Origin: Vicugna vicugna
Lineage: Eukaryota
Length of the DNA stretch: 64,000 nt
Assembly: GCA_013265495.1 (NCBI GenBank)
Contig: MU057416.1
Coordinates: forward strand, 56,545 to 120,544
Direction: 5' to 3'
Shown here: in pieces, positions 38,831 through 64,000 of the stretch
How the letters are laid out: each line of letters starts with the position of its first letter
How positions within the stretch are numbered: position 1 is the first letter of the stretch
The notes under the pieces: generated by a model
The model's input: only the letters and a program-made list of their open reading frames with translations
Databases searched by the model: none
Told to the model about the DNA's origin: nothing
Program-made: the position numbers and the translations under genes

Positions 38831-41309
38831 GGTGATCTTTTATACTGTGCGATACTCTGTGTTTAAGAATGGTCCTGGTTCATGTGCGTGCTGTTCACAT
38901 AGCAGGGGTGTCACTGATTTGAGGACACAGGGAACCCCACACACTCAAGGTGTAGTGCGTGTTGGACTGGAAGTGAGAACTTGGTCACTGGAGGTGGGAG
39001 TGAGGACCCGGAACTTGTCGACTGCAGAATAACCATGGCTGCTGTATTTCAGATCTCCAGTGTGTGACTTAATAGAGTTCAGGAGTCTTGGTTGAATAAA
39101 TGAATGAGTTGATTACTGTCACACGGGGTGTAAGATGTCCCAGTCATGTCATTGGTAAGTAGCTCCTTCAGGCCACTCTTTGAGGTGAGTGAAGGAACTC
39201 GCTGCATCTAAGTCCCCACGATGTCAGTGTCCACCAGCCCTGAGAGAGTGGACAGAGGAGAATGGGAAATGGGACCACCAGGCAGAGACCGCAGCAGCTC
39301 CGTTCCCTCCCGCTGGTGAAACAGAATCATAACATCTTCAGTGACCTTTGTGCTTAGATTCCCATCTTTAATTTTAATGCTTTTCTCCCAAGAATCTTGT
39401 TTTCTCTATGTCGAGGGCTACCGTAGCCACCTGGAGGAGAATTATCCCGGTGCAAGTGTTGAGCTGAAGGAAGCAGGGCAGGAGCTCTGCTCTCAGGTCT
39501 TGGCTGCTGAGTCCGGAGGGGGAACCAGATTATCTGCCCACCTGGGCCTGCTGCTGCAACCCGCCAGCGCTGAGAGAGGCCCACAGTGGCCTCCAGCACA
39601 TCCTGACAGTGGGGCGATGTGTCTCGTGTGGACCCCCAACACTGCCTGGCCGCCCTGTCACCCTCCCTAGCATAGCCATCTCCTCGCTTCCCAAAATGAC
39701 CGTTTTACCCCTTGTCTTGATTCGTCTCCCAGAATTTCTCAATCAGCCAATCATTTCCCTCCTGTTCTTCTAAAACCGTGGCAGTGAATCACACAGGAGC
39801 TTTCTCGTCTTCCTACCGCTGAGTCTGCCAGCGCACGTGTAAGTCAGTGCCACCGCCGTCTTCTCGTTTCAGACAAGAGTCCCTGGTTCTATCCAAGACC
39901 AACTCTCCTGCGTGTGATCAGAAGCCAGTGCTTCCTGACCCCCCAGGGACGTTGCTTCTGCAATCGTTTTCTTCTCTGCTGCATGGAAATATTTTCCTCT
40001 TTAGTGGAATTTCAGTCGACGTATGAATATGCTCTAACATGTCCTGTCCCAAACAAAAGATACACGTTCAGTACATGTCTGTCTCAAGCTGCAGCTCCGT
40101 GTCTCTGATGATGTTTACAGCTTAGGGTTCTCGGGAGCTGGTGTCTCTCCCTTTCTCATCACACTCATTCGCTCCGTGAACTCCTCCTCCCCCTGCCTGG
40201 ATCTAGTGTCACCATCTCTGACTTCTTTCACTGGAACTCCCAGCAGCGTTCCAGACAGACCACCCTGCTCTCCTTTTTGAAGGACACCTAGTAGGTGTAC
40301 CAGTTAGCGATTGCTTCCGAACACATCACACTCAAACTCGGTGGCTGGAAATGTCAAGTTACTGCTTCTCCTGAGTCTGTGGGTCTCCTGGGTGGTTTAT
40401 GCGGTCTCCTTTTGCCTCACTCAAGTGTGGCGGTCAAGTGCGGGTGGCGCAGCTCTGCAGATCTAGGCTGGATTCTTCCAGGCTGTGGGCTGGCTGGTTC
40501 TGGGATGGCCTCGGCTGCAGTATTTCAAAACTGGCAGCTTTGCAGAATGTGGCCAACTCTATTCTAGCTCAGTCCCTCCAGAAGGTAATAGGTTTCATTT
40601 ATTGGTGGCAATTCCTGACTTTGTGTGTGCTTGTGTGCTAATCTAGGGAAAGCATAATCTGAAACCTTTTTACTCCTCCGCATTTCTGTAAGCTGCATGG
40701 CTTCATTTTAAGGTGCCAGGGAGATGAGTGAAACCATGGTGGAGTCATTTCTCATCTTACAAAGGATCAAAACAAAAAATGAGCAGGGTTCAGAACATCC
40801 TTAGGGTACTCCATTTCTGTGTGAAGACCTGTGTGAGCAGAAAAAGCATTTTAGGATAAGTACATGTACAAAAAGTCAAGTTTTTTTGTGGCTAAGAAAG
40901 CTATCATAGATAAATGAGTTATCTCTGAAATACGGAAAACCTCTTTTTTTTTTAAATATGTAAATAAAGTGAACCGTAGCGGCTCTGCCATCTGTGTGAG
41001 GCTGAGAGTTCCTGGAAAATGACTCATTCAGTTCAGCAAAGACGTGAAACCAGATTTGAATGTAAAAAATACATGAGTTCCAGAGAACCTAGGATGCAAG
41101 GATTAGCACAGACACTTCCCAGTGCAGTGTTTGGAATAGAGGTGGGGTCATGGAAAAACGAGCAGACACCGTGGACGTGGACGGGAAGGCTCTTCAGTAG
41201 TGAGCACTGCTCTTTGAAATTGCTTTGATTTAGTTGCTGGAATTAACTGTCCAAGGCCTGTAGGGGTCATTTAGTTCAATGCCATTTTGTCTGTTAAGCC
41301 ACTGAAAAT

Positions 41310-43256: not shown

Positions 43257-43355
43257 TTTCTTTCTATCTATCTGTCTGTCTGTCTATCTATCTATCAGTC
43301 TATCATCTGTCTGTCTATATATCTCATCTGTCTGTCTGTCTATCCATCCTATCAT
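43257..43355. repeat. (TCTA/TCTG)n tetranucleotide repeat
   Basis: Direct read. Confidence 0.9.
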
Positions 43356-43787
43356 TTCTCTATGAAGTTCTTAGTGTTTTCTTTGAACTAGTGGTAACAT
43401 CTTACTGGTTTCCTCACTGATTAATGAGTTAAATAAAACCCTGAGCACATGTTTATTGTGTATCTATTGGAGAAATGATGATATCACCCTTAAAGATAAT
43501 CTTTTAGCAACTGAAATGAAGAATATATTTTCTAAATTGATAGAAAGGAGAAGAAATTTAAAAAAGCAACACCCACTCACTAAAAAATGGTTGGGTCCAT
43601 GTTTTTTCGTTCAGGTGTCCCAAAATATGTTACCCTGCCTTCTTGACTTGCTCCAAGTTAAGCGACAAGGTCGTACCTGTGACCAGGAAAGCTTTAACAA
43701 CTTTTTGTTGGTTGGCTTTTAAATACAGTCCTCATGTATGGACCACATCACATTAAAACCCATAGGTGCCTAGCAAATTTAAGACAT

Positions 43788-44045
43788 CTATGTCACATCT
43801 CTTACTATAAACAGGAGCCATAGCAATGAGGTGGCATGTAGACACTGTTTATTGAACAACGGAGTGCTTGTGTAGTTGGTGACTCTGTAGTTCGAGTGGA
43901 TTTCCGGTTTCACATCACAGACGATGCTCAAAAGCTGGTTGATGACACTTTCCATGGACGTGCTGTGGCTCCCATCCAGCTCTTTTATCTTCCTCAGTGT
44001 CTGTGCTTCTATCTCTCTGGAGAGATTGCTCTGGGAGCCCATTGT
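43788..44045 (-). CDS. ATP6V1G3: ATP6V1G3 exon 3 coding part; orthologous stop position 43872-43874 is TAC, frame runs on to 43788
   Basis: Acceptor ttctgttctggtag|ACA ATG GGC TCC CAG. ORF 43788..44042 matches the G3 C-terminus up to NYRVTN and then continues for 28 extra residues. Confidence 0.93.
   Translation of the reverse strand, partial: TMGSQSNLSREIEAQTLRKIKELDGSHSTSMESVINQLLSIVCDVKPEIHSNYRVTNYTSTPLFNKQCLHATSLLWLLFIVRDVT
43848..43853 (-). terminator. Candidate polyadenylation signal AATAAA (another at 43452-43457)
   Basis: tttatt on the plus strand, ~20 nt past the orthologous stop position. Confidence 0.35.
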
Positions 44046-44745
44046 CTACCAGAACAGAACAGACGGAGTTCACCACATGACGCTTCGGATTAGAGTCTCA
44101 TTGTTTTGCAAGTTAAACTTGTCTTCACCTGTTTATGGGTGATTGTTCTCTGGTGTATGTGTTATTTTTCCAGAATTCTCTCAGAGAACGGACAAGATCA
44201 GCAATGCTATGAGGAGGATGGATAAACTTTTCTAAAAAATATAATTGGAAAAAAAAAACAAGACAAAACAAACAAAAATAAACCACTATACTATACACCT
44301 GAAACTAATGAAATATTATTAATCAACTATACTTCAATTAAAAAAAGCAAATGGAAGCTGGCCACGGCATGTGAGCTCTGCTTCAAGGTGACCTTTGCAC
44401 AGTAGAAATCAAATAAAAAGTTCACAGCCATTACACCACACGCAGAAGTTTCTTCATGGTTTTGTAATTGAGTCCCCGTATCTGCCCTACTGCTTTCTGA
44501 ATTAAAAGTCTGGACAATAAAGTTGAAAGACTTCAATCCATTTTTGCTGGTTTTTAAAGAGCAAATAACTGGCTTGTCAATTTTTAAAATACTTTATCTG
44601 AACTGATTAAATCTTGTTTCTCAGAAAGATACAGCCGCAGTATGCCCAGTGAGATGCTTCTACATGCACAGATAAATATCTTTTTAGGCAATGGATATAA
44701 TCTTGAAAATTTTGGTATAAACTGGATTTCTTTCAAACTGAGATA

Positions 44746-45236
44746 TACAGACATTTGGTCCCCAATTTTGATGCTGTGACTCAGAATTTTTTGATGGTGA
44801 GAAAGTGATAGTGTATTCTGCAGGGACCGTAACTTGCCTCTGGAGCTTCTCCCCAGGCCAGTGATGTCCAGTGGGACGCTCTCCGGCGATGCTCGACAGT
44901 GGTGAGCCCCAGCTCCCAGCCAGCCCAGGAGCCATGAACGTCAACAACTCACTCACACAACCATTCTGCACCAGACAACCATTCTCTGTTTCACTTTCTG
45001 TACTGCATTCAATCAATTCCATGAGTTATTCAAGACTTCATTATAAGATACGCCGTGTGGGATGAGTTTGCCTAATTGCAGGCTGATGACAGTGTTCTGA
45101 TCACGTTTAGGGTAGGCTGGGCTGGGCTGTGTTATCGATGGATTAGATGTCATCAATGCATTTTCGACTTTGCTATTTTTAGTTTACAGTGGGTTTGTCA
45201 GGACGTAACCCCATCGTGGTCAAGGAAGAGCTGTAC
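44746..45236 (-). mobile_element. Tigger-family non-autonomous DNA transposon (MER47/Tigger5-like)
   Basis: aatgcattttcgactt...gggtttgtcaggacgtaaccccatcgt...ctgta end and tacag start. Confidence 0.7.
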
Positions 45237-46348
45237 TTGTCGACTTGGTTCCATGATGATTCTAGACTCAGCGTAACTCATCTTTCTGGTTGTTCTGTCA
45301 TTGGCAGTGATTCTGGTCTTTCCTACTTCATCCTCTGTCTCTTAGCCTCCCTGTCAAGGAATGACAAGATTGAAATGCAATTTTACCAGGAGAGTTACCA
45401 ATTTAAAAGGATTCTTCAGTGAAACCCTCTGTGAAATTATCCACTGCTGAAGCCAACAGCCAGCTCCTAATTTATCTCCTTCGTAAACTCAGCCTTTCTT
45501 GAACAGGGCATCATTAGGTGACACAGCTGGTTTTTGTTTGTTTGTTTTTCTCTCCTGTGAGTGTTTAGGGAAGGTATGCATTTAATTTAATCCAAGAGGA
45601 CTCCACTAATGACTGATTTTTACTGCCAGGTTGTTAGACTGTTCTAAATCCTAGAATCCACAGGATCTTTCTGGGCCCTGAATTTGAAATAGAAAGCAGT
45701 TGAGGCTGTCCGGTTCCGGTTCTTTCCTGTTTACAGTCTGGGCAAGAGGGGCTTCCTAGTTCAAAGAAAATCATTTTGAGGAGATACAGCTTCTAAGACA
45801 TCAAATAGCTTTCATAAAATTACATTTTGGTAAGTATGCATGCAGGAACAACAGACATTTGGATAAAATTTCCCTTGCTACAAGGAAGTTTGAAAATAGA
45901 GAACTACTTACCAAAATAGTTCTACCAAAATCAGATTTTTCCTCTAAATCCAATATCTTAAGTGAGATTCTACCAAACTCAAAAATAAAATTACTTTTCC
46001 TAAATACAATGTCTTAAGTGGTGAAAAATTTAAAAGACAAACTGTTACGAAACGATTATCTATTTTTCTTAGGAGCAGTGTTAAAAATGGTTATTTTTAG
46101 GCTAGATTACTGCAGCTATCCTGAAGGACTTTGGAAAAGTTCATCTCAACCTTATGTTCTTTATTTTTTAAATACGGATAACATCAGAACATCACCCATT
46201 TGATGGGACTGCTGTAAAAAGTCAACCAGAGTCATGTGTGCAAAGTATGCAGAGTGGTGCTGCCCAATAGAATTGTAATATGAGCCACCAATGACCCATA
46301 TAAGTGACGTAAATTTTTCTATAGTATTAAAAAAGAAAAGAAAAAGAT

Positions 46349-46505
46349 GGAGGATATAGCTTAATGGTAGAGCATGTTCTTAGCATGCACAAGGTCCTGG
46401 GTTCCAACCCCAGTACCTCTGTTAAAAAAAAAAAACTAAGTAAATAACCTAATTATCCCCTCCACAAAAAACCCTAACTAACTAACTAAATAATTAAAAA
46501 AAAAA
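46349..46505 (+). mobile_element. tRNA-derived SINE (Vic-1-like)
   Basis: tatagcttaatggtagagc...gtcctgggttccaaccccagt, A-rich tail, aaaagat on both flanks. Confidence 0.88.
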
Positions 46506-47932
46506 GATAAGTGCCTCGAACACTGCTTGGCACATAGTAGGTGCTCAGTGCATCCCTGTTGAACAGAATAGAATGAGCTGCTCACCAGGCATCAGGGAGA
46601 ACTGATTACCTGTGTTCTACTGCTCTCGTCGGCCGAAGCCTGCTGCCTGAGTATTTGGGACACTATATAAATTAGAAGTCGATAATTATGTGACGTGGAA
46701 CTTGGTATGTTTGGCCGAAGGGTGCCGTTTGAGGACTTCTCCAGGCAAATTTCCCACCCTTCAGTGCTGCGGCCGCTGTGTGCAGCTTTGCAGAGTAATG
46801 ACTGATGGTGTTGGCGAAATCTTTCAGCGTTCAATAAGTTTCCTTGTAAGTTGTTCAAATGTTCCAATTTAAGGGAAACCAGAGGGTCAGGTCTCACACA
46901 GTCTTGCATTCTCAACTTGTGGTTGCTTCAAGGAAACAAAAATGCTTTCATGATAGGAATTTAGAAAGAAAGGAAAAAGACATTTTTTAGATCTTTTGTT
47001 CAGATTCGTGGTCCGTCTAACTTTTACTTGCATTAACAGTAGATACAACTTCCCACTGCAGTCCAGATCTCTTTTCGGCCAAGTACTGTTTTCTCCAGTA
47101 GAGGATGTTATTTTGCAGGACTTTCCGAGGTCCTGCAGGATGGCCGCAGGAGCTCCATCACCGCGGTTTTGTCTTTCTGAGAGAATCACAGAAACGGAGC
47201 CCTGCAGTGTGAACGGCCGCCTTCTTCCCTCAGCAGAGCTTCTTCTTAGAATCACCCCAGCTGTCACGTGTATCATTCGTTTGATCCTTCTTATTGCTGA
47301 GTGGTGCTGCAGTTTAGCAAGAGACAAAGTGAAATAAGGGATAAGTGTACAGCAGGAGATAGCAAAGTAAATCTTTGTTATAAAAATATTCCTTGATATA
47401 CAGCCCACCTTGGGATACTCACTTCTACTGATAAAGGAGGGGGGTGGAAAATGAGTCAGGGGGTGTGGAAAAAACATACATTAGCAAGAGCTAAGAAGCA
47501 CCCAAAAGAGTAGCATTGCGGGGCAGCAGCCACAGCAGGTGGGAAACTGGTTTCCCGGGGCTCCTCCGGGAGCTCCTCCGAGCCCCGGGTGAGCGCCCAC
47601 GAGCTCCGCGCGGGACAGCGGCGTGTGGCCCCCGCGGGCCGTGGCGGGAAGGCGCTGGGCTCACGCTTCACAATATGCTTGAAGCCGCAGAGGCCCGAAT
47701 GCGTTGACCTTCCTATGTGAGATTTTGATCAACTAGCTGTTAAATTGGCTTAGAGCTCTCATTCTGAGAGCGGTGAGGAGTTTTAATTATTCTCCAGCTC
47801 AGAGAATAAATACCATGAGCCAGACTTACATCTTATGAGATTCTTCATGAGACGTAATATTTCAAGAGATTAAACCCAACCACTTTCTAAAATTGTGGTC
47901 AGTTTTGTAATTATTTAAAAAAAATAATAATA

Positions 47933-48110
47933 TGGGGAGAAAGTATAGCTCAGTGGTAGAACACATGCTTAGCGTGCACAAGGTCCTGGGTTCAACCCCC
48001 AGTATTTCCATTAAAATAAGTAAGTGAATAAATAAACCTAATTACTTCTCCCCAAAACAAAAACAAAAAATAAATAAAATAAAATATTAAAAAGTATATT
48101 AATTAAAGAA
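47933..48110 (+). mobile_element. tRNA-derived SINE (Vic-1-like)
   Basis: gtatagctcagtggtagaacacatgcttagcgtgcacaaggtcctgggttcaacccccagt plus tail. Confidence 0.9.
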
Positions 48111-49332
48111 GAAGAATAATTCATATGTTAGAAATATCTTCTGCAGGATCAGAAAAGCTGATTGGTGTTAAGGGTGATTATTTTTTGGATCCTAATAAGT
48201 CATGGTTATGACAGGACTCAATAGGAAAGATAAAAGCATAGAAGAAATGTTGAGTTACTCATTCTTTCAATGAATACTTACTGTGTATTTACAATGGGGC
48301 AGTAACGTCTAGGAAAGCAACAGGGAACAAAATAAAGAACCTGCCATTTTGGTGCTTACAGTCCAGAAGGAAAGATAATCAATAAGCAAAAAATGTGAAT
48401 GTATAGTATATCCTGTAGTGATAAATGCTATGACTATAATTAGTACTTTCTTTTTTTATGAGAGACACAATCTTAGATAAGGTGATCGAGAACAAGAGCC
48501 AACAACTAACTGAACAGAGATCAAAGAGCAATGAATGTCTGTGAAAGAAGAGGATTCCTGGGAGTGGCTACAGCATATGCAAAGGCCCTGTGGCAGTGGC
48601 CTGTTCAGTTCACCTGGGGAAGAGCAGGGAGACACATGTGGCTAGAATAGAACAAGTAGAGACAAAGGGAGTAGAATATGTTACAAATGACCAAAGTAGA
48701 CATTGTTGCCAATTGCTGACAAGTCTTCTGGTATTTCCTTATGATTTTCTTTTCAACTAGCTGGCTCCACTCAATAAACCTTTCATACAAAATATAAAGA
48801 CATGCTGTTCCCTACACTAGCATTTAAAAAATATCTGCACTTTCAAAGGCAAGTGCATGACACTCAGAGCCCACAGGTCAGAGAGAGAGCCGAAGGGCAG
48901 TTGTGAGGGGCGTATGTGTTTGTGTGGACTGGGGAGTCTATGATTCCTTTTTCCAAATATCGATAAGAAGAATTTATTTTTGCTGAGTGGTCCACTTTAT
49001 TCTAAGGCCCTTTTGTTTCAAGAAACAGCCCGTTGGAAAAGTTTTTCCTATCGTGGGATCTCATTCACCTGATCTAACGCAAGCTCTGCATTGACTCCCA
49101 CTAAAATCAAAGCTGTAAACGGAGAGATTTACAAACTGCTTGCAGTTCATCTTGCCGTGTCAGGCTTCTGCACAGACCTTTATTTGTGTTTTTGCCAAAG
49201 AGAAAATACATCAACTTTAGTTATGGCGCATGGAATTTAATAATTCCTTTTAGTTCATGTTGCAAATCAGCTCTGAAAAATTCCTGCACTTATGTATTTT
49301 ACTGTAAACTGCAGATATTTTTTAAACGCTAA

Positions 49333-49463
49333 TGTATGAAAAAGCATTTCTTTACATTTTCATTAAAGATTGGTTGAAGGGAGCCAGCCAGTTGAAAAGG
49401 AAATCGTAACGGAATACCAGAAGCCTTTGCAGCAATTTGCAACAATATCGACTTTGATCATTT
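49333..49463. repeat. Intronic source copy of the 131-bp dispersed duplication
   Basis: Aligns without gaps to 50013-50143 (offset 680) with 4 mismatches. Confidence 0.97.
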
Positions 49464-49933
49464 ATAAATCTTGAATTAACCAAAGGAAATTTGGCCTAAC
49501 AAGCTCACTGTAGAACATTGTTCAACACTTTTTATTGATTCTACTAGTAAACATTAATAGACAAAAAAAAAGTTCTCTGTATTTTTTTCTTACTAAAATG
49601 TGTTAGTCAATCATCTGTAGTAGGAATAAAACTAACCAATTCCATCAACTTGTATATCTGAGAATATGATTTTTAACACATACGATGTATTAGATAAGAA
49701 CTATGGATTGACAGTCTCTATGACGAATGTGAAAACGTCAAATCGGTGATTCTGGGATGTTTCTGATTTGATTTGCGGTTCAGCCATGGTGAAGTCTATT
49801 TGCTCCATCCGATATGTTCTCTCCTGATATCCTGCGTCGGACCTTATGAAGATGAAGATCTCATCACTGTTCATGGATGTTAGTGTCTTACCATCTAAGC
49901 TGCTTGGAAATCGGTGCCAGCCGTCTCGCTCAC

Positions 49934-50157
49934 CTTAGCGTGTTTCAGCCGGAATGCCTGATCTCTCTGCATCCTGTACTGGTCAGTCTCTGCCATCGCT
50001 TCCTCCTTGGCCTGTATGAGAAAGCATTTCTTTACATTTTCATTAAAGACTGGTTGAAGGGAGCCATCCAGTTGAAAAGGAAATCGTAACGGAATACCAG
50101 AAGCCTTTGCAGCAATTTGCAACAATACCGACTTTGATCATTTTGGCTTGGCTTTTC
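49934..50157 (-). CDS. ATP6V1G3: ATP6V1G3 exon 2 (224 nt, disrupted by an insertion; ~101 nt expected)
   Basis: Acceptor tgttaattttcag|GA AAA GCC AAG CCA AAA TGA (stop at 50138-50140). Homology resumes at CAG GCC AAG GAG GAA GCG ATG (50014) and ends CAC GCT AAG|gtgag. Confidence 0.92.
50013..50143. repeat. Inserted copy of the 131-bp duplication inside ATP6V1G3 exon 2
   Basis: Direct repeat of 49333-49463, flanked on both sides by exon 2 coding sequence. Confidence 0.97.
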
Positions 50158-52454
50158 CTGAAAATTAACAGTGGCACAGAAAGGACAGATTTCTCTTCAG
50201 CATACAGAATTTCAAACTTGCTTTTTAGAAATACAGGTGAGGTCTACATGATTTTCAGATGCTCCACCCCCCCCCCCGCCTCAAATGATGCCCTTTGTTT
50301 AGAAACAAGCAATACTGAAAAATTCCTTGTTTTTTCAACTGGATTCTTTCGAACACGGAAATGACAACTTTCTTTTACACTCACATGTTTAAATGAAATA
50401 TCTTCCCGTTTACTATCACAGGAGTAACAGCCAGAGAGCAGATCTGAGCTGTCACTTACTCAGAAAGACATTATTTGGTCAGATCTGCTGTCCTGATTTG
50501 CTGCCAGGAATCCTTCAGTCCACACCAAATGAATCTGTTTAACGCTGGCAGACCTCCAACCGGCACTACAAACATGTGGCTCAGACTCTCTCAAACCAAC
50601 TTACAGTTTTTTAAAGCATTTTATTGGGGTGTTTTCCTTACCGTGTGTTGACTCTAGAATGTCTGATTAAGCCCCAAAGCACATCAAAGTAGACATTTTT
50701 TGTAGTCGCTTTCTCTGAGGGGGACTTGAAAGTGGTTGTAAAACCAACGGTTTTAATGGTTAGGAGATTTAGTTAAGTAGCTCTCTTTTCTTTTATTAAG
50801 AGCAAAGGTGTAAGCCTTAAGCCAGCAGATAGCACGGTAGATGAAAGTTTCAGAAAAATGTGAAAAACTGTGGAGATCATTAGGTAAGCACATGACTTTT
50901 TTGACAACCAGAGGAAGTATTGGGGGGGAGTGACAGAGTCATGTTAATCACTGCTCAGCCCTTACCACCCACCACCTTCGGGGAAGCTAGGTACTAACGC
51001 TCTGTGATCATTAAAACTTTAAAAAATCTCTGAACTGTATTGAAACTAATTTTCTTCAGAATCTATTGTCTTTCTATTTTAGTTAAATGCCTTGATTCAT
51101 TTGCCCGTTTAACATCATTTTTTTCTTCTGGTAAGATCTCTTAAGCTTTGGTTTATAATTTTTGTCAATGGTTTGTTGCACTATGTAGACTTGGAACTAA
51201 ATGTGTTTTCATTAAGTAGCATGAAAGAAAATCTTAACATAAACCTTATCTGTCATCTAGATACACAGGTTTACATGGCTTTGTTTTTGTGTAACTTTGT
51301 TGCATTTGAGCAGAGATGAGTCCTAAATTTCTCTTCCTGCTGCACAGAAGTTGCTTTGCGAGTCGCTGTATATGTGTGGACAAGAGACAGTCACTGTGTT
51401 ACACACTGAAATGTGTCTCTTTTAGTACCTCTTACCCTTGAGCGGGACTGAGCAGACGTCATTCACAACGCATATTTAGCTCTGTCTTAATTGTCCTTAG
51501 AATCCAAGGTCTAGTGAAAATGAGTGTTCTTCCAATGACTGAGCCTTAATGGAACGTTACCAGTAATGCTTTCCTTTTTCCTCCTCAATTCATGCTCGTT
51601 ACCATCTTGTATGTACACTTTTCTTCCTCTCTGGAGCTCTGACCACTTCCTGGCAACCACACACACGCCGTTCACAGGACAAACAAGCGAAATGTTGGCA
51701 AGGAAAACCATTCCTAGCCCCCAGCTCACTTTCTTATCCCTGCTTGTCACTAACATGAGGACAAAAATATATGTAAGAGGTGAGAAGATTTCTTAGTCGT
51801 AACGTGCTGTGGGTTACGTAACGAGTGGTCGGACACTATCTGATTGAGCAAAAAACCCCATAAAACATCATTACTTTCCATCTTAATTGCATATTGTGTA
51901 AAAGTACTTGTTTCCAAGTTGCAACTCGAGCACATTAAAAAAAACAACAACAACTAATAATAGGAAAAGCGCTGCGTGCCCGGCCCCTGCGCAGAAGCTG
52001 GCGCCCCTCTTCGGAGGCTGCGTGAGCTCCGAGTGCGCCTGCTTCCCCGGTGTGGCGCCGGTCACCTGCTGGTTCTCATTCAGTTAAACAGGGGAGCCAC
52101 GGGGACCTCGGGCGGCCCGCGGCGGGGAGGCGCAGGGCACCAGCCAGCCCGCATGGCCTGACCGCTGCTGGCTTCTGCGTCTGCGTGGGAACCTTCCAGA
52201 TTTTACAATTGCACCTCTTCCTTCTTTAAGCATTAAAAGCGTGGCTGCTGGGAACCCAAATGAGATCACGTTCCTATTTCTCAATACTTTCTCTCTCAAA
52301 CACAGGGGTGACCTTTTGGGACAGTCCAGATTTTAAATAGAACAGTCACATATTGGTCCCCAATTTCCTATAAGGTCACACGAGGCCAAATGTCCTGATT
52401 TTTGGTTTAGAAAATGAGACAACTCGTGCGTCATGATTTTATTACTTTAGAAAG

Positions 52455-52556
52455 TTTTTTGTTTGTTTGTTTTTTTAGCGGAGGTACTGGGGACTGAAGG
52501 CAGGACCTCGTGTAAGCTAAGCGCGCTCTCTACCACTGAGCCACACCCCCCCACCC
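52455..52556 (-). mobile_element. tRNA-derived SINE (Vic-1-like)
   Basis: gaggtactggggactgaagg...ctctaccactgagccacacccc with a T-rich tail. Confidence 0.85.
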
Positions 52557-54229
52557 CGTGCTCCCTCATCGTGATTAAAAATACTCCCGAGCAGGTGCTG
52601 CCGAGTGGTGTGGGAAAGGCTGGCTTCCCTTTATCCATCCATTATTCATTCAGTATTTATTGAGTACTTGCTGCATATTACACAGAGGGCCAGAACCAAA
52701 CGTGCGATACGGTTTTTGCTTCTAGCTGACATGCATGCAGTGTATTTTGGAAATACGTACATGCTGCTCCAGCGTCCATGAGGAGAATTAGAAAATGCAT
52801 AAGATTGTCAAGAAGGCACAAAACCAACTATGAAGACAATGGAATGTAAGTCTTGGTTCAGTGTGTTTTGTGACAGCGAAAAACTACATTTATGGAAACC
52901 TCTCCTACTAAAATTCTTGAGAATCGGTGCTTGCCCGCACCCCGGTGGTCATGTCATGTCTTGTGGTAGCAGAGTTAGTAAAGAAGACGAACAAACAGAC
53001 CCACCTGTGCAGGGTGGGGGCTCAGAGGAGCCGCCAGGGGGGATCAGGGAAGGTGTCTGAGGAGAAAACTGTTACACTGAAGAGACTCATTAGCCAGGAC
53101 AGACATGGGAGTGGACAGTGTATTTTGGCATCAGAAAAAAAAAAAATGGCAAGACGACCCCTTCTGTTTCTGGGAACTCTTTATAAATAGTTCCCCTTTA
53201 AATCATTCGCTTTTAGACGTTCGGTCTGCTACACCCTGCTTTCAACGAGCCGTTGCTGAGATACATTCCATAGGGTGTTCTGTGGGAGGAAAAGTAGGAA
53301 AGGAAGGTGTTTGGACTGATTTCCAGGTGATTGTGGGGAAAGGATTAAAAAATCAATTTAGGGCAGGTTAGAACTGAGCTCTGTTCCCGGGGCTGGGGGA
53401 GTGGGCAGGGCTGTGCGCCGGGTTCCGCTCGGCTTCTTGGTGAGAAAAAGCCGAGGGGCTGAGGGCCCCAAGATGCTTATGAGCACCGCTCCATGCTGGG
53501 ATTGCTAACCTGCTTCTGGATCCCTTTTCTGAAGGGAAGAGAGGCTTCATTGATCGTTTCAGAAAGAAATCAGAACTGTACCCTGGGCACCACTACAGTA
53601 AAACGTTAGAAGCTTTGTAACCTCGAGCAAGGTAGTTTCCGAACCTGAGCTTTCTCACCTGTAAAACAGATTTAATGCTGTACTGCAGAGTCATCGGAAG
53701 GATTTGCAACACATACATAGTGCTTGATGAAGAATGTTCAACAATTTCCAATCATTATTAGGAAAGAAAGACCGATTCCCGGGGCCGTTTGCTAAGAAGG
53801 AAGGCAGTGAGGAAGGCGGGGGTTGAGGAGAGAGCTCCGGGCTGTCACCCAAAAAAGCCCCTGCGGGCTTCCCTGAGGTCACCCACAGGGAGATGCCCAG
53901 AGGGCAACCGGACGGGCAAGTCTGGAATCCAGGAGAAAGGTGTGAAACGGAGACGAGCTCTGCTTTGGCGTCATCTGGGTCTGGCGTGCTCGAGGCGGCG
54001 CAGTGGGTTTGGGACAAAGTCAAGGGGTCTGCACAGAATGAGCAGGAAAGAGGGCTAAGGTCTCAGCCGAGGCGGGGGCGGGGGGCGCCGACGTTGGGAG
54101 GATGAGAACAGGAAGAACAGCGTCAGGAAAAGCCGAGAGCAGTCACCGGAGTCGGAGGGGAACCAGAATAGAGAACAGCCCAGAGAGGAGGTGGCCAACA
54201 GATGCTACACGGACTGGATGTGAATGGGC

Positions 54230-55540
54230 CGTCCTCAGTCAGCCATCATTCCTGGGGGTCTGCCACGTCGCACACTCTTCTAGGTCCCGATACAGCAGTG
54301 AAAACCACAGGCAGACACACTTTCTGCTCTCGTGGCGTCCCGACTGTCGCAGGGAGAGGTAGAAATGGAAAACTGACAGGAGGACACAGTGCAACGGGGT
54401 GATGAGTCCTGGGCGGAGGAATAAAGGAGCCATCGGGACAGAGAGGCGGCTGGAAGCTAACTGAGATCAGGCAAGCCTCTCAGAGGATGTGCCATGCGAG
54501 CAGAGACCCCAAGGGGTAAGACAGCTAGCCATGCAAACGCCTGACAGGGAAGGGCGTTCCAGGCAGACGGAACAGCAGGGCAAAGACCCTGAGGTCGAAG
54601 GGCATTTGACACGCTCAAGGAACAGTAAAAACATCATCATGGCTGGGTCAAAGGTCAAAGAGCAGAATGGTTGAATGTCAGGAGGACTATCACAGAGGTG
54701 GCAGTAGGGCCAGGTCACAGAGCTCTCCTGGGGAGGGCGAGGATCTCGGTCCTTGAGACGCTAAATCCATGAAGGGTTTTTACCAATGGGTGGCATAATG
54801 TTCTTTATGATCTAAAAGGAGTTCTTTGGCTGGTGTGGCGAAAGAGACTGTAAGAGCAAGGAAGATGCAGGGAGAGTGGTTTGAAATCTACTGCACTAGT
54901 TCAGACAAATGTTAGTGATGCCTGGCAGTGGTGAAGTGGCCGTGCAGTTGCTGCGAAGTGACACAGACGTTGAAGGCAGAGTTGATGGAGAAGCAGGAGA
55001 GACAGACAAATCAATGACGGCTCCGACATTTTATTTTGGTGGGGGGGTCAAGAATGCAGTTTGAGACACCCGTTAAATATCTGGTGGGGATGGTGAGAAA
55101 GCGGATGTTAATGTGAATTTGAAGATCAGGGAAGCAAGTCAGGCTGGAAATACTGAAGTTTGGGGAACATCAGCCTAGAGCCGGGATTTGAAGTCGTAGG
55201 ATTAGGTGTGATCACCTGGGAAGTGTCTGCGGATGCAGGACAGAACAAGTCCAAGTGGGGGCTGGACTCTGGAGGGAGGGGGGGAGGTAGAGGAAGGCCG
55301 AGCAGGAGGGCGGGGTCACGCAGGCCAGTGAAGGGAGAGCTTCAAAGATGAGAGACGGACCCCGTTGTGACAGAGAAAGCTGATTCACCGGGGTTAGCAA
55401 CACTGCTGGTCTTCGCAAGAGAAGCTTTGGTGGAGTTGGAGGGACTGAAGCCTGATTAGAGTGGGTTTCGGAGAGAATGGAATTTAAAAATGCAGACACA
55501 GGGAATCTAGGCAACTTCTTTGAGAAGTTTTCAGTTACAA
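54230..55540 (-). mobile_element. L2 fragment
   Basis: gggaagggcgttccaggcagacggaacagcagggcaaagaccctgagg...ggtggagttggagggactgaagcctgatt. Confidence 0.7.
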
Positions 55541-55594
55541 AAACAGACAAAGAAGATAAGGACTCAAGATGGTCAAGTGGGTTTGTCAAGAGGA

Positions 55595-56050
55595 TGTTGT
55601 GGGTTGAACTGTGTCCTTCAAGGTGTGTTTATATCGTAATGGACGTGACCTTACTTGGAAATAGGGTCTTGGGAGATGTCGTCAAGTTAGGACGAGGTCC
55701 TACTAGATTAAGATGGGTCCTACATCTGATAACTGGTGTCCTTATAAAGAGAGGGAGCTTTGGACACAGAGACAGAGCAGCACAGAGCAGACATGCGGGG
55801 AGGAGGCCATGTGATGGCAGGGGCAGAGACTTGAATGATGCAGCTCTAAGCCAAGGAAAGCCAAGGGCTGCCGGCCATCAGAAGCTGGGAGAGAGACGTG
55901 GACACATCCTTCCTCAGTTCCTTCTGGAGGAAGGAACCACCAGCTCGTGTTTGGACTTCTGGCTCCCAGAACTGGAGGCTAATATACGCCTGTGGTTGGG
56001 AGCCATCCTGTTTGTGGTGATTTGTTTAGCAGCCCTAGGAAGCTAACACA
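55595..56050 (+). mobile_element. MLT1B/C-like LTR
   Basis: tgttgtgggttgaactgtgtcc...gtgaccttacttggaaatagggtctt...ttggacttctggctcccagaactg...gcagccctaggaagctaacaca. Confidence 0.85.
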
Positions 56051-59000
56051 GTGGCTCAGAGACACAGACACACAAGGTCAGTTGAGCACCAGATGCAAAG
56101 TCACGTGCTTGAGTGTGGTACTAGGAGTATGTTTCCAAATGAACGCACCGCCTGAAAAAAAAAATGCACAGACAGAGCAGAGGCCACCTTGATGTGGTCT
56201 GAACACAGAGGGCACTCTGGGAATGTTTGAAGATTTCTATGTGTTACTAATTGCACATTTTTACTCTGCTCTACCAAATAGAAGAAGAAAAGGCCTTCTT
56301 GGCTTTGGGGGTGGTTAATATGATGACACAAACAACCTCATTCAAAGAGCGTTCTTATTCTGCTCGCCCTACAAACTTCGGAACAGTGGTCCGTTACCAG
56401 GAAACAAAGGAGCCACCTCTCTTTTGGCACCTTGAGTGTTCCCATGCTTCTCTGCTGAACCACATCTCTCCTTTCATACCTCTGACTTCTTTGTGAATCC
56501 TTTGTTATTCCTTTTTCTTGTACATCCTTATTAAAAAAATAAAACTTAAGTAGTTTTGTGTAGATCCTGGATTGAATATAACCAAACATCATTAATAAAT
56601 GAAAATGTCCTGTGGTTATTATTTTAATATGACCCACTCGAAGAAATGAAAGGCCAGCGTAGCCATGAATACCCATTAGTCTGTGGACTGTAAGAAGAAG
56701 GAAGGATTTACAGGCCTACAAAACATACAGAGCAGGGTCGTGAATTTCTCCTATAACAATTTTCATTTTATTCGTTTATTAGAAGTTATGTCTTCACGAA
56801 TCAAAACACTCCCTGGCACAGTGAAGCGTTTATTAAACCAAGGTGCTTGGTGAAATAATTTGGAATCTCTGTATATTTGGAAATAAATCAGCAATTCAAA
56901 TTGTGATTAAAAAAATCAGCGGGAGGCCTCCTCGAGACCCACAGAAGTGAACATGCCTCACTGTGTTTGCTGATGAGTTATCCAGGGAGAAAGCAGAACT
57001 ATTTCAAGGCTTTAGTTTGCACTGGAGTACAACTCAATGCACAGAAATATTTAAATTATTTTACTTGTTTGTTTTATTTGCACTGCAGTAGAATTCAGTA
57101 GAAGGTCGTGCTGGATTCATCAGAGGGGGCCCTGCGATTGCCCTGGACCCGGCACAGAACCCTTTTCACTAAGCGGTGGAGGAATTTTCCCAGCTGACAC
57201 GGGTGCAGCCCCTGCTGGGGACCAAGGCGTGTTTTAAGTCCTTGATAAGCGTTAGCTCAGCTAACCGTGAGGACGACTCCCTGAGGGCGACGGGGCCACC
57301 TCCGCCGTGAGGCTCAGGAGGGGAAAGACCAGGGGGCTCAGGGATAGCCAGCCCCACGTCGCCCGGCCAGTCGGAGGCGAGAGCTGGGCTTGTAGCCGGA
57401 GCCGCCGCTTGCTCCTGGGGGCGAGGGGGGTCTGCGCTGTCTGGGTCGGACACCCCAGGGTCGCGACCCTCGCTTTTATTAAGACTGCCCAGAGCTTTCA
57501 GAACCTCTTTCTTATACCTGCTTGTTCAGTGTTTCTCATGCCCAGATTTGAACATTTATGTTTACCGCATCTTTTGATCTGTATCCCATAATGCAAATTG
57601 TAATTTTGGGTTAAACACAAACGTTATTTACCGCAGCTGCCAGAGTAGACAGGTGGAGTGTTAATTTGTGGGGGAGGCCACGGTGCACATTTGGAAATAT
57701 GTCAGGAATATGGATTCTTTATGTGACGTGGAGCAATTCAAATGACAGCATTAGGGCCGAATGGTAGAGCCTCCCAGGTTTGCAGTGGGTGTAAATGAAA
57801 TAGACACTGTGCTCTTAAAAGGTGTAACTTAAAGTAAAAAAAAAAAAATCACGTGTTTCAGAGAAGACATGGATGAGGGGGCCCTGACTTCCTATTCTAA
57901 TTCTGATCAAAGATGCAGGTAATTTCCCCAAAGCTGGAGCTCCAGGGCAGGTCCGATGCTCTGTTGTGAAAGTGTAACTTGCGTCGACCAATACACTCAC
58001 TTTTATGTTTTGAAGGATGCACAATTTTAAGCAAAAGGTGTTAACTTCAAGTGAGATAAATTAAAATAATGCCATAGCAAGAGGTAAACAAAAATAATAA
58101 AAAATAATGCCAACCTACTGCAATTCCACCTAAATTCAAACAGTTTTTACACATAAAAATTTGGGTGAGTGTCTTAACTAGTAAATACCATTCAATCCAC
58201 ACTCAGTGAATAGAGGCGAACGTCTGAGTTCTTTCACTCATTTTACTAGAAGCAGCGCTGGTCTCCTCACTGGAAGAAAAGTTGAGCCCCCCCACCCCCA
58301 ACAGAAAACAGAAAAGTTGGCCGAGAACTTGCAGCCGCTGTAAAAAAGGATGAAACGAGACTGTTGTTTCTGGTTTCCTACTCCAGTCTTCTGTTGCTTT
58401 TACCTACAGTCACATACAAGTATACATACTGTATAAATTAAAAAGAAGACTAACTCATTAGTTTTTACTCTACCACCTTAGGTACCATTTTTCTGATCCT
58501 TAAAGCATTTTGGTCACACATATTAAATATTACATATAATATTTTATTCTTCTGTATATTTCTGTTTTCTTTTTTAAAAAAAGCAAAGATGGAAGCTCAG
58601 AGATGCTCAGTAACTTAAACAAAGAAATAAAAGGAAAAAGCCGGTGCTCTTTCTACTCTGCTGCCTCACAGCCCAGCTTTGCGAGTCTGTTGGATATCCG
58701 CACTTCCGTACCACGCCCCCCCAACAGCAAACCAGCCTGCCAGTCCCACCTCTCTGCAGCTGGAGTCTTGAGAGCAGGGACCTGTGATTGCATTTCCACG
58801 GCTCTAACAGCCTTCAGGAGAGCCCCTAACACCCTTGTCTGTGTCCCGAAAGGCAAAGCATTTACACACGTACAGGACTGTGGAGTAACTTCCCTGGGAT
58901 CTGAGGCCGTCCTCCTGAATGGAATATGTTCATAGTTTTGCAACATCATATGTACATACTAGCACTATGTTAACCTTGTGTTTTTCTAAAATGATTAACA

Positions 59001-59075
59001 TGTGACTTACTATTTTTTCTCTCTCTGTCTTTCTCTCCCTCCCTCCATTTCTCCCTTTTTAAAATATATTTCACA

Positions 59076-59232
59076 GGGGGAAGGGTCTAGTTCAGCAGCA
59101 GAGTGCATGCTTAGCGCGCAACAGGTCCTGGGTTCCATCCCCAGTAGTGCCATTAAGAAATAAATAAATGAATAAATAAACCTAATTACCTCCCCCTGCC
59201 AAAAAAAATTTGATTAATTAATTAAATTTTAC
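59076..59232 (+). mobile_element. tRNA-derived SINE (Vic-1-like)
   Basis: Diverged A box, gtcctgggttccatccccagt, and the shared aaacctaattacctcccc tail. Confidence 0.85.
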
Positions 59233-60208
59233 AAATACACTCACAAGCCTTGCTCTAGCAGGGTAAGTTCTGAAAGTCTTGTAAATAAACGGATTTAGGA
59301 AGAAGATGGTGAAGCTAAGCCTGCAAGTGTGTTGCTGCTGTGATCGATTAGTTGCCGTTCTGAGTCTCTGTTCTGCCTCTGTGTCAGATTTTCAAATGAA
59401 TCTCTTTTTGGAAAAAAGGCGAGTAAATCTATGGGTTTACAAAGATGACGGCTCTCTGTACCTCGCATGGCATTTCCACATCTGTCTCGTGGGGGAGTCT
59501 TCTGAGGAAGGTCTTCTCATCAGTGAATATACCAGAGCAGCCTGAAAATCACTGGCACCCAACAAGTACTTACTGAATTAAACACATAAATAAAATTAAA
59601 AAAAATAGTGAAATAGCAGAAAAGCTACGAAATAGCAGGTACACAAGGCAGCATTGCACTTGGCCGCGGCGAGCTGAAGAAGCGAGTGACGGGCACGGGC
59701 CCCGGAGCTGTCACCTAGCCGCCCCTGCGTGTGGCGTCTGGGCAGGGAACGGCCCCCGTCTGTCCGGTGAAAACGGCCCCCGAGCCCGTGCTCCCCGAGG
59801 CCAAGGACGGGCTTCCTCTGAGAAAGTGAGCGCAGAGCTCACTGGTTGAAACAACAGTTGGAAAGATATTTTCCAAAATATTTTTAAGGCCAGGGTATTT
59901 ACTATTACTGGTTGATATTTGTTCAAAGATTTATGAACAAAGACCAAGAAAAAAAAGTACATAAGTATTTTAAGTGACTGGTCAACAAAATGAACATTGT
60001 GTATACAAATAATACAGTATGGACCTTCCGGTACTGACTTCCGAGGAGAGATTGCCCGAACACAGCATACTGACCAAGGGGAGGGAAAAATAGCCTGTCT
60101 TCTACCTTTCCTGTGAAAGCTGAGGTTAGATTGTTCTGAGAGGTTCCCACCTCCAAATGACTTGCCTGATTCCCAGTGCCTCTCTAATGACTGAGGAATG
60201 AGAGATAA

Positions 60209-60351
60209 GGGGGAAGGGTGGGGTATAGCTCAGTGGTAGAGCAGGTGCTTAGCATGCAGTAGGTCCTGGGTTCAATCCCCAGTCCCTCCATTAAAAAAAT
60301 AAATAAGTAAATACATCTAATTACCTCCCTCCCCCTCAAAAATTAAAGAAA
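60209..60351 (+). mobile_element. tRNA-derived SINE (Vic-1-like) with TSD
   Basis: Full A/B boxes; TSD aatgagagata at 60197-60207 and 60352-60362. Confidence 0.92.
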
Positions 60352-62068
60352 AATGAGAGATAGGTGGTAAGTATCATTTGGATCAAATGACAATATTGAC
60401 TATGTGCTCAATATTGTCATTTTGTTTCTTCCATCTTGAGGAAGGAATGGTAACATAATGACCACATCTTAAAATAAACTGATCTTCTGTTCTGGACATT
60501 TTAAATATAGAAAAGAAATTTGAATAAAAGATAAGGGAGTTTTCTACACTGTTTCAACCAGCAGGTCCTGGGCTGCTTTGTTTTCTCAGCAGTTACTCTG
60601 TGTTCATCCCATTTGGCCATCATTTGCATGGTTTGTTGTAGCGAAAAAAAAAATGGAGAAGTTGGTCAAGTTTGCCTTCGTTAGCTTGAGCCTTCCCTTT
60701 CCCTTCCAGCACCTCCACGTGGACTCTTTTTCTTTTGTGCTTTGGTGCCCACATTGCTGAGTGTTCAGGAAATCAACTGATCTTAAGAAAGGAAAATGAC
60801 TTTATATGTGATTGAAAACCCCAGGGGACTGAGTAGTGAGTGTCTGCCTTGCCTTCCTTTCTTACACTATCACGTCCTGTGCCCACGTTACATTCAATGC
60901 ATTGAAACAAGCTTCTGTCAATACCGACTCTGTTCTGATCTCTTCACGCAGCCAAAGTCTTACACAAGCAACGCTTTAAGACGTGATCCCTGTCTGGCAG
61001 GGCTTGGAATCTAATTGCAGAGACAGGACATGTAATTAGGAAGGTAAATGACACACCATGTTGGAGATTAAGTAAGGATGTGAGTGAAATGGGACAGTGG
61101 GGGAAACAGAGGTCTTGGCCCCCAGGGACCAGAATTTGGGGTGTAGATCTGTGACATTCGTTTATTCGTTATGAAAATCACGTACATTTTGTACAGTGCC
61201 TTGTTTAGATTGTGGCTGGGGGATCAGACCCCACCAAACCCTGTCTCTACCATTAACCTCTGTGTGATCTTGAGCAAGTTGCATCATTTCTCTAAGCTCA
61301 CTTTCCCCTTTTTGCAAAGAGGGTTGGTGTGAAGAGTAAATAAGATAAGGAGTAAGTAAGTAAACAAGATGAGCATGGGCCTGGCACCCTATTTTCTGCT
61401 TTTTAAAATATGGCTGTCGGCAAACTATAGACTCTCAATTTCTGCATAAGTGAAATGGAAATGTAGTTATTATGCCTAATCCGTGTGGTTGCTGTGAATG
61501 TCAAAGAAACATTCTCTGGGTAAGCACGTAGATGAATGACCAAATAACAAGAAATCAGAAAGTGAGAATAAAATGGAAATATTTTTAAAGGTTGGACATT
61601 AAAAACCATCAAGAAAGGGAGAACAAATGTAACTTTGTCACAATGTGCAGAACAGAAACCGATGCCTACAGAGGCTAAGACACTTGCCCAAGCTCGCTCA
61701 CTAGTCCGTCACTTCGGTCTGGAAGTGGCCTGTCCTTTCTTAACCATTCTGCAACATTGAGACACCGAGGCGTGGCGGCTTTAGGGAAGTTGGAGGCAAA
61801 GCTCAAGCCCGAGTCTCTGCAACTTCAGCGTCCATCATCATTTCCCACGGAGCGCGATGTGGCCAAAAGATCTGAGCTGGGGAAATTCATCCCCACTCTA
61901 GTGATGGGAGACATGCAACTGGGAAGCTTTAGTGAGCTGGCCACGGTCTCCCCGAGAGCGTGGCGGAACCAGGGAGTAACCTGTTCGAGAGGTCCGCGCT
62001 CCTCCTCCTGCACGCCCCTCATCCGTTTTGTGACCAGTCCCTCACAGGGCAGACAGGAGGGGGCTTAC

Positions 62069-62150
62069 TCCTTTTGGCTTCCTCGAGCTTGTCCTTGGCC
62101 CTTTTCTCTGCCTGGAGGAGCTGGTGGATCCCCTGGGACTGGCTGGCCGT
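62069..62150 (-). CDS. ATP6V1G3: ATP6V1G3 coding exon 1 (82 nt, starts ACG instead of ATG)
   Basis: Minus strand reads gccggccaccACG GCC AGC CAG TCC CAG GGG ATC CAC CAG ... GCC AAA AGG A|gtaagc: 27 codons plus 1 nt, phase-1 donor. Confidence 0.95.
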
Positions 62151-62374
62151 GGTGGCCGGCTCCAAGTCAGGTGGCTTCTGAGAATCTGGGAAGGGATGGA
62201 AATCACCACAGAGCTCACACTGTTGTGTCAGCAGTGAGCACTCAGCACAGCTGTTGGCTCCCAAGCGGCCTGATCAGGTGGGGGAGCGGGGCTCCAAGGA
62301 GAGCCCAAGGGTGGAATCCAGAAGAACAAGTCAAGTCAAGGAAGCTGAGAGCTCACTTCTGCCAGCTTCAGGTC

Positions 62375-62381
62375 TTTTATA
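62375..62381 (-). promoter_or_regulatory. Candidate TATA box of ATP6V1G3
   Basis: TATAAAA on the minus strand, ~225 bp upstream of the exon 1 start codon position. Confidence 0.4.
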
Positions 62382-64000
62382 TGCAATCAAGAGAGTTTCA
62401 GGGGGTGTTGAGTCTGCTTACAAAGAAAGGAGTAAGATCTCTGCGGGAGGTTAACTTCTCTCTTCTTCCAAAGAACCTTGACGTTTTTGCTGACTTTTTC
62501 TTTCAAGTTACAAGGCCTTTCTGTGTTCTTTGTCCTTGTGGTTCTAGTTTGAGGTCTTTTTCTTTAGTTTCCAATGAGTCAATTATCTGCTTGGGACAAG
62601 TGTATCAGCCTTTTGCGAGGAAGGAGATCTCCTGGCTTTGTGCACAGAAGGTAGGCAAGGCGTTTACTGTTCTTCCCCAGGCCTCGGGTGACAGGAATGA
62701 AGAGGCTTCTCGGGGTGTCGCAAGGCGCTGTAGCAATGCTGCGCGCTAGGGTTCCAGGAAGCCTGCCGCGTGCTGATTAAATCAGCATTAGAGGAAATGG
62801 GACTGTAGGTTTTGAGGTTCGCTTAAAATCATCTAAACATGCGTGTTGTGTTACTCTGGGCTTGCCCTGGGGGACGTCCTAGTAAGAGAGTCCAGTAAAA
62901 TCCACCTTATTCGAGTGGATTCAACCCGCTAGTGACTGACAAATCAAAACGGCGGGGACAGTGGAGAGATACAAAATATCGCTTACATGAATTGAAAGTT
63001 TTGTTTGAAGTGAAAAGCTAGTCTTTTGACATACGGCCGAGGCTTTTTTCTCTGACATAATTGGCAGATAGGACTGTCACTTACGATGACTTCCACCAGC
63101 TGCACCTCTGTTGCCTCATCATTACATACCAGGTGCAATTTCTTTAAATAGGTGCACAAAGTTAGAGAGTAATGGGAAGCATTCTGCGCGTTAAGTCCGT
63201 AAGGGGTTAATGATAATTCTCCCCTAACAGTTTAAAGAGATCTTGCTGTGATACCTGCATCACAATGCCACGCTCCGGCTTCATCACGTGCACAGATCTT
63301 TCCACACACGCACACACAAAAGCCCTTTTTCACAGGAGCACCTTTCCTTCTCTTTGTGTTCATATTTAATTAGTTTATAAAACTGAACTGTTATTGCATA
63401 ATTACCATCCTTGGTACATCCGGAATAAACAGGTCTGTGAACAAACACAGCTCTTCGTAAACGTGCATTTCACCTGTCAGAGCAGAAGTGTGAAGTCAAA
63501 CCGGCGACTGGCTCGCCAGCCTCTGGCGGGGCCTGGCATCGGCGTCGGCGGACTTTTTACCGAGTGGGGACCGCCAGCGACTTCTGTGAACGTTCAGTGG
63601 AGGTCGTTACAAGCAACTTGCTTTAATCTGATACCAGCAGTGTCTACTGACTTTCTCCTGAGTGCATCCCCCTGGATGAGGCCAGTTCAGGGAACTGGAT
63701 CTTGAGACACAGAGAAGGGATAATCCTGCAGGGAGATCACTGGGGAGGATCTGGGTAAGAAGGCTGATTCCTCAGACTGGCGTTAATAAATACACCGTCT
63801 CCTAAAAGTCTGAAGAGACGGGGTGACTCTGTGAGAGTTCGAACAGGTTGCGTGATCACATTGTCACCAGCGAAGGCTTCCTGAGTCCACAGTAAGCGCC
63901 TCCCTGCCTAACCCTAAGACTCCTTTCCTGGCTGCTGCGTTTTTTAAATTCAAATCTGCCAGAATAATATACTACTAATGTGCATGTGTTTTAAGCCAAC

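Follow-up and report, generated by a model that had tools for sequence, protein, structure and literature searches.

Three lesions in the coding exons of ATP6V1G3

The window analysed here is a 64-kb stretch of the Vicugna vicugna genome (C107:56545-120544, in a 2.03-Gb assembly of 12,405 contigs); coordinates refer to this window unless a contig is named. On its minus strand lie the three coding exons of ATP6V1G3, the gene for G3, the kidney-restricted isoform of the peripheral-stalk G subunit in the proton pump that acidifies the urine. What G3 contributes beyond its paralog G1 is unsettled. Each coding exon carries one lesion (Table 1). We propose that the locus is a unitary pseudogene, namely the single syntenic ATP6V1G3 of a llama-group camelid (Lamini), and put the probability of this reading, which is built on sequence comparison, at roughly 80%.

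The first lesion affects the start codon. Position 1 is methionine in all 44 mammalian G3 orthologs of 118 amino acids (aa), and the window has an ACG triplet there, followed by TASQSQGIHQLLQAEKRAKDKLEEAKR. The 250 nucleotides (nt) of the minus strand upstream of the ACG (62151-62400) are free of ATG in every frame, and an in-frame TGA is found 42 codons before the ACG (62276-62274). Exon 2, entered in phase 1, reads RKAKPK and then meets a TGA (50140-50138) that is carried by an insertion and is the sole stop in the exon 2 frame. In exon 3 the terminal stop has become TAC, and read-through past this point amounts to 28 residues in total (TAC included). All three lesions had been proposed in an earlier note on this DNA, together with intact introns and splice sites, and our analysis recovered each of them at the same position. 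The introns measure 11,911 and 5,888 nt, and all four splice sites are GT/AG.

The coding exons remain recognisable. In searches with the Pfam family V-ATPase_G (PF03179; cut-off 28.6 bits), the scores are 30.2 bits for exon 1 and 30.6 bits for exon 3. The 25-residue piece from exon 2 reaches 21.3 bits, which is under the cut-off, as expected at such a length.

Table 1. Positions of the ATP6V1G3 exons, their lesions and associated elements in the window.
Feature	Position	Strand	Remarks
5' leader upstream of ACG	62151..62400	-	scanned for ATG in all frames
AG acceptor in 5' leader	62184-62185	-	joint to the upstream ATG exon in the alpaca model; from model comparison
Coding exon 1	62069..62150	-	82 nt; ends in phase 1; donor A/GTAAGC
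Lesion 1: ACG (Thr) at the ortholog ATG position	62148..62150	-	context GCCACC-ACG-G kept
Coding exon 2	49934..50157	-	224 nt vs ~101 nt expected; acceptor TTTTCAG/G, donor AAG/GTGAGC
Lesion 2: 131-nt insertion	50013..50143	-	copy of intron 2 sequence, 97% identity, 4 mismatches
Lesion 2, stop: in-frame TGA carried by the insert	50138..50140	-	after 33 codons; distance to the downstream exon 2/3 junction 204 nt
Two AG acceptors inside the insert	50029..50051	-	exon start 50049: open frame from exon 1; 50029: start used in the alpaca model, needs phase 0
Source copy of the insert, intron 2	49333..49463	-	680 bp downstream in gene sense
Older inverted copy of the source element	48681..48843	+	~80-85% complementary to 49306-49467; spacer ~460 nt
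Coding exon 3 up to the lost stop	43872..44045	-	acceptor GGTAG/ACA; ends ...NYRVTN
Lesion 3: TAC (Tyr) at the ortholog stop position	43872..43874	-	44/44 orthologs stop there, after residue 118
Read-through tail	43788..43871	-	27 codons past TAC, with a hydrophobic stretch; terminates at TAG 43790-43788
AATAAA between lost stop and new TAG	43848..43853	-	candidate poly(A) signal
Downstream exon LVDTDIVGT, then stop	39208..39239	-	joined to exon 3 after NYT in the alpaca model; from model comparison

Orthology and copy number

The top named protein matches for the locus are G3 proteins. Its three exons are 76-86% identical to whale G3 (exon 1, 86% to residues 2-30; exon 3, 79% to residues 62-118), compared with 41-75% for the exons of G1 and G2 and for G1 retrocopies. 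An exon encoding the CD45 domain of PTPRC (PF12567) lies on the same contig and on the opposite strand, ~113 kb beyond exon 1 (C107:231794-231967), and confirms synteny on this side; the contig ends short of NEK7 on the other. In human, PTPRC is likewise a neighbour of the gene. A processed (retro-)pseudogene was ruled out by the two long introns with GT/AG sites; these introns, together with the PTPRC exon, bear out the earlier assignment of this stretch as the genomic locus and not a retrocopy.

Copies elsewhere were sought by a six-frame search of the whole assembly, using exon 3 of the locus and G3 of the right whale (Eubalaena glacialis) as queries. G3-like exons were returned from C107 only, with no second G3-like locus in this assembly, which is fragmented. 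The paralogs G1 and G2, which the earlier note had invoked, are both present with an ATG and open exons, ATP6V1G1 as a three-exon gene on contig C12399 and ATP6V1G2 as a compact gene on C1666. There are also three intronless retrocopies of ATP6V1G1 (C7665:1285077-1285424, C10921:6424079-6424423 and C10886:5612312-5612644), two of which are full-length open frames with Met, while the third has Ile for Met, a deletion and a TAG. Judged from these comparisons, the locus is the single, syntenic ATP6V1G3 ortholog.

Working orthologs are found in related lineages (whale, sheep and muntjac) and in 41 other mammals, in each case with 118 aa and a Met start. Those of E. glacialis (isoform X2), Muntiacus reevesi and Ovis aries have the same layout of three coding exons, the same phases and the same flanking gene, and exon 1 of the locus equals that of O. 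aries G3 letter for letter, the start codon excepted. Whereas working orthologs have an ATG, an unbroken RK(A/V)KRLRQ and a stop after residue 118, the locus described here has none of the three. ATP6V1G1 and ATP6V1G2 belong to the same family and share its 118-aa, three-exon design but, unlike G3, are intact in this genome. Some public G3 models from other mammals look irregular: that of Manis javanica has an altered exon 2 region, that of Dugong dugon is flagged 'LOW QUALITY PROTEIN', and isoform X1 of Bos taurus lacks the usual exon 1. They may be candidates for additional, independent decay of the gene.

Distribution of the lesions among camelids

The locus was compared with four camelid protein models, two from dromedary (KAB1258690.1, 118 aa, partial; XP_031294134.1, 204 aa, partial), one from Camelus ferus (223 aa) and one from alpaca, Vicugna pacos (170 aa). 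The alpaca model contains, without a single difference, exon 1 of the window, the end of the insert with the remainder of exon 2, and exon 3 as far as NYT, which points to alpaca, or a species very close to it, as the source of the DNA. The exon translations are ~95% identical to the Camelus models.

Where a camelid model includes exon 1, as in dromedary, C. ferus and alpaca, it reads ...EPATTASQSQ, with Thr for Met, and translation runs beyond RVTN into YT in all four records. After this, the three Camelus records share one tail, STPLFNKQCLHATSLLWLLFI.RDVT, and the alpaca model splices elsewhere after NYT. Because the losses of start and stop are common to the Camelus and Vicugna models, these sequences place both events before the split between camels and llamas. 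Exon 2 of Camelus reads RRKAKRLRQAKEE, without the insertion, and the end of the insert, KCFLIQAKEE, is contained in the alpaca model. On this comparison, only the llama side has the insertion. The three lesions listed in the earlier note are all real, with the refinement that the ACG and the loss of the stop are common to Camelus and Vicugna and the exon 2 insertion is seen on the llama and alpaca side only. The lesions affect the start, the stop and a stretch of conserved basic residues, and those at start and stop are found again in other camelid assemblies; the lesions are therefore neither chance nor the error of a single assembly.

Origin of the exon 2 insertion

In the window, 146 nt precede the conserved GCCAAGGAG of exon 2 (at 50011), versus the 23 nt implied by the Camelus proteins. 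The exon has gained 123 nt net, which leaves the reading frame unshifted. The junctions suggest that the insert replaced ~8 nt of the R-L-R-Q codons. A genome search returned two copies of this sequence only, the insert and its source in intron 2. With the older inverted copy used to set the polarity, all four mismatches between insert and source are derived on the insert side (4:0 split, two-sided P=0.125). An attempt to date the insert from these mismatches was dropped for this reason: they may have been born in the copying event itself and are thus not used as a clock.

We propose that the insertion arose by a local templated event, such as a template switch or synthesis-dependent repair, from a template 680 bp away, which the nearby inverted repeat perhaps favoured. 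The exon 2 lesion would then be a clean example of a templated insertion from that distance beside an inverted repeat. The repeat itself has arms of ~160 nt, one of which holds the insert source. A genome search for further copies of this repeat found none, and it is not a high-copy element.

Public gene models of the locus

The NCBI camelid models of ATP6V1G3 describe this same locus. They differ from our reading in that a coding annotation is reached by way of an open N-terminus, extra exons or, in alpaca, an additional 7-residue piece combined with an acceptor in the insert. The N-terminus is left open in the dromedary models, and unrelated upstream exons are added in that of C. ferus. The alpaca model starts in an exon reading MANHG...KTA, which encodes its first 22 residues and lies outside the window (C107:125737-125808), and is then joined to an acceptor 33 nt before the ACG. 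It subsequently adds the 7-residue piece, which shifts the phase, and enters exon 2 at an AG within the insert (50029).

Exact, fuzzy-peptide and degenerate-DNA searches of the window did not recover this 7-residue piece (KTGTGSGA). The degenerate DNA pattern, with at most 3 mismatches allowed, gave 3 matches in the window against 1.02 expected, none of them in intron 1 on the gene strand. The nearest candidate, STGSGA in a GC-rich repeat (~59795), was rejected as having no usable splice sites. We read the camelid coding models as annotation work-arounds for what would be a broken gene.

Pattern of amino-acid changes

Constraint was assessed at the protein level with the 44 working mammalian orthologs as the reference, positions identical in at least 38 of 44 being counted as conserved. 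Seven amino-acid changes have accumulated since the camel/llama split, namely K19N, A40V, R56W and K80N on the Camelus stem, Y88H in the lineage of the window, and changes at positions 75 and 90. Five of the seven fall at conserved positions, versus 14.6% (120/821) of the deviations seen among working orthologs (P=0.001, and 0.001-0.026 over thresholds of 35-42); these values must be read with caution, as the changes are few, the counts are not phylogenetically independent and the thresholds were picked after viewing the data. A uniform spread over positions would put a share of 59% at conserved sites, with which the observed 5/7 is compatible (P=0.41). All four changes on the Camelus stem are at conserved positions (P=0.0005 under the pattern of the working orthologs), and a conserved, ACG-initiated gene under purifying selection was rejected on this basis. 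Position 88 is Tyr in 44/44 mammals and His here, and R56W and K80N are found in 0/44.

On the camelid stem, six changes are common to the three camelids and absent from six outgroups (position 1 excluded), and only one of them is at a conserved position. In a relative-rate test, Camelus has 11-13 unique changes versus 2 in whale (P 0.007-0.022). Taken together, the results suggest that the gene was constrained for most of the camelid stem and later drifted neutrally in both tribes; the post-split changes fit neutral decay and do not fit what is seen in working orthologs. We roughly estimate that an open frame would survive by chance for so long in about a third of cases, which is weak evidence either way.

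Proposed course and consequences of the loss

A unitary pseudogene through lineage-specific loss, as put forward in the earlier note, accords with lesions in the syntenic ortholog, a single locus and working orthologs in 44 mammals. In the scenario that we favour, the start and stop lesions would have arisen on the camelid stem, probably late, because changes on the stem avoid conserved positions and later ones do not. The gene would then have drifted neutrally in both tribes, and the llama lineage would have gained the exon 2 insertion later.

With the AUG gone, G3 would be produced at best in small amounts. A transcript that is translated from the ACG would end at the TGA, and would be expected to undergo nonsense-mediated decay, which by an established rule is triggered by a stop well upstream of the last exon junction. 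In Camelus, a product started at the ACG would bear the 28-residue tail with its hydrophobic stretch, and read-through tails tend to destabilise proteins. If the AATAAA (43853-43848) acts as the actual poly(A) signal, the mRNA would be left without a stop codon. Editing of ACG to AUG at the RNA level was rejected, because such editing is not known to act on the start codons of mammalian nuclear genes.

The intact and ubiquitous G1 presumably supplies the G subunit in the intercalated cells of the kidney. A takeover by G1 in the camelid kidney is plausible, because G1 and G2 are intact here and G1 is up-regulated in mice without G2 (PMC4564858). The earlier suggestion of a link with herbivory as such finds no support. 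Sheep and muntjac keep an intact 118-aa G3, so herbivory alone is no explanation.

Alternative explanations

A number of observations weigh against the loss of G3 and raise the question whether the gene has been remodelled rather than disabled. In such a case, a G3-like protein with a new C-terminal tail would be made from the ACG or from the upstream ATG exon, and the llama group would use a cryptic acceptor to skip the TGA. In three camelid species the locus carries a protein-coding annotation at NCBI. The GCCACC-ACG-G context is preserved, and inefficient initiation at an ACG is possible where the context is strong. An ATG is available ~7 kb upstream of exon 1 in the exon MANHG...KTA, which has a GTACGG donor, and the insert acceptor with an exon start at 50049 keeps the frame open and bypasses the TGA. 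The remaining frame is open as well, in Camelus save for start and stop and in the window save also for the insert. Moreover, the stem and crown shares of conserved-site changes differ with P=0.078 in a one-sided test only, the relative-rate excess is not significant against ruminants (9-11 vs 4-7), and the alpaca model possibly comes from the same animal as the assembly, so that it may not be independent. We nevertheless regard a remodelled gene as improbable. Five of the seven post-split changes (Y88H, R56W and K80N among them) hit conserved sites, as in neutral drift, and the N-termini of the models are unrelated among the three species, which speaks against a rescue that has been conserved. 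The frame-keeping 7-residue piece of the alpaca model is missing from the window, and the normal exon 2 acceptor is intact and stronger than that in the insert (14 vs 12 pyrimidines of 20). Either bypass would also swap the conserved RKxKRLKQ for unrelated residues of a different length; with the exon start at 50049, 13 unrelated residues replace the conserved 8.

Other explanations concern the assembly rather than the gene. Given an assembly of 12,405 contigs and an N run in the window (21778-22588), the lesions might be assembly or sequencing errors, which we find scarcely credible: Thr 1 and the read-through tail recur in the models of dromedary (two records), C. ferus and alpaca, the insert end is present in the alpaca model, and insert and source are told apart by 4 of 131 positions, which is not what a collapsed or mis-joined repeat would give. 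A working G3 copy could lie in unassembled sequence or be a diverged duplicate, since the assembly is fragmented and maybe incomplete. This is very unlikely in view of the whole-genome searches, in which all matches outside C107 were G1, G2 and the three G1 retrocopies (41-75%), and of the position of the broken locus at the syntenic place beside PTPRC. The annotations of other camelids likewise gave only the G3 locus among the 120 listed of 135 matches. Finally, the locus may persist as a transcribed non-coding or regulatory RNA, which would be compatible with a unitary pseudogene. Its splice sites are intact, and the extra 5' and 3' exons of the alpaca model may rest on transcript data; we hold such a role to be possible but rather unlikely. 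Of 24 listed sequencing runs, 14 of DNA type from two organisms contain 0.90-0.93 of the words sampled from 43600-53500, and four recorded as RNA contain 0.07-0.34; these shares bear neither on the lesions nor on expression.

Relation to known gene losses and possible significance

Unitary pseudogenes of tissue-restricted paralogs are a well-known kind of event. AQP10 and the testis Na+/K+ ATPase are reportedly lineage-specific examples in Cetartiodactyla, and the event proposed here would be of the same kind, with a syntenic ortholog disabled and paralogs kept, in another gene and clade. A full-text literature search found no published loss of ATP6V1G3 in camelids or any mammal, although the supplements of gene-loss surveys, which it did not cover, could list it. 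Among metagenome contigs, a search with 27 nt spanning the lost stop returned 0 matches.

Camelids are known for their unusual renal physiology. One may speculate that all living camelids are natural G3 knock-outs, in which the gene lost its function not long before camels and llamas diverged, with a cause or consequence in renal acid-base or water balance, as opposed to a neutral loss covered by G1. We doubt that this stronger claim holds. If it were true, camelids would constitute a ready-made model for the contribution of G3 to the kidney proton pump. A clade-wide loss would mean that a large mammal can do without G3, and would offer a comparison of camelid and ruminant kidneys for G3 function. 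If the loss was merely buffered by G1, it would be a routine unitary pseudogene. The loss would also correct the coding annotation in three camelid species.

Other features of the window

Antisense to exon 1 and the promoter region, a stop-free frame of 356 codons runs across 61679-62749 on the plus strand (GC 0.48-0.57). It has no Pfam match and no domain that stands out, and is probably fortuitous, as the stretch is GC-rich and faces a coding exon. None of seven long stop-free frames in the window had a Pfam match, and the N run at 21778-22588, an assembly gap, yields spurious long open frames. Introns 1 and 2 contain four repeats of ~150 nt with A-rich tails that resemble short interspersed elements (46325-46475, 47914-48063, 59056-59207 and 60194-60342). 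The copies are 68-72% identical, and their tails are 60-82% A-rich. Just downstream of the gene lies a tetranucleotide microsatellite of the TCTG/TCTA type (43262-43348).

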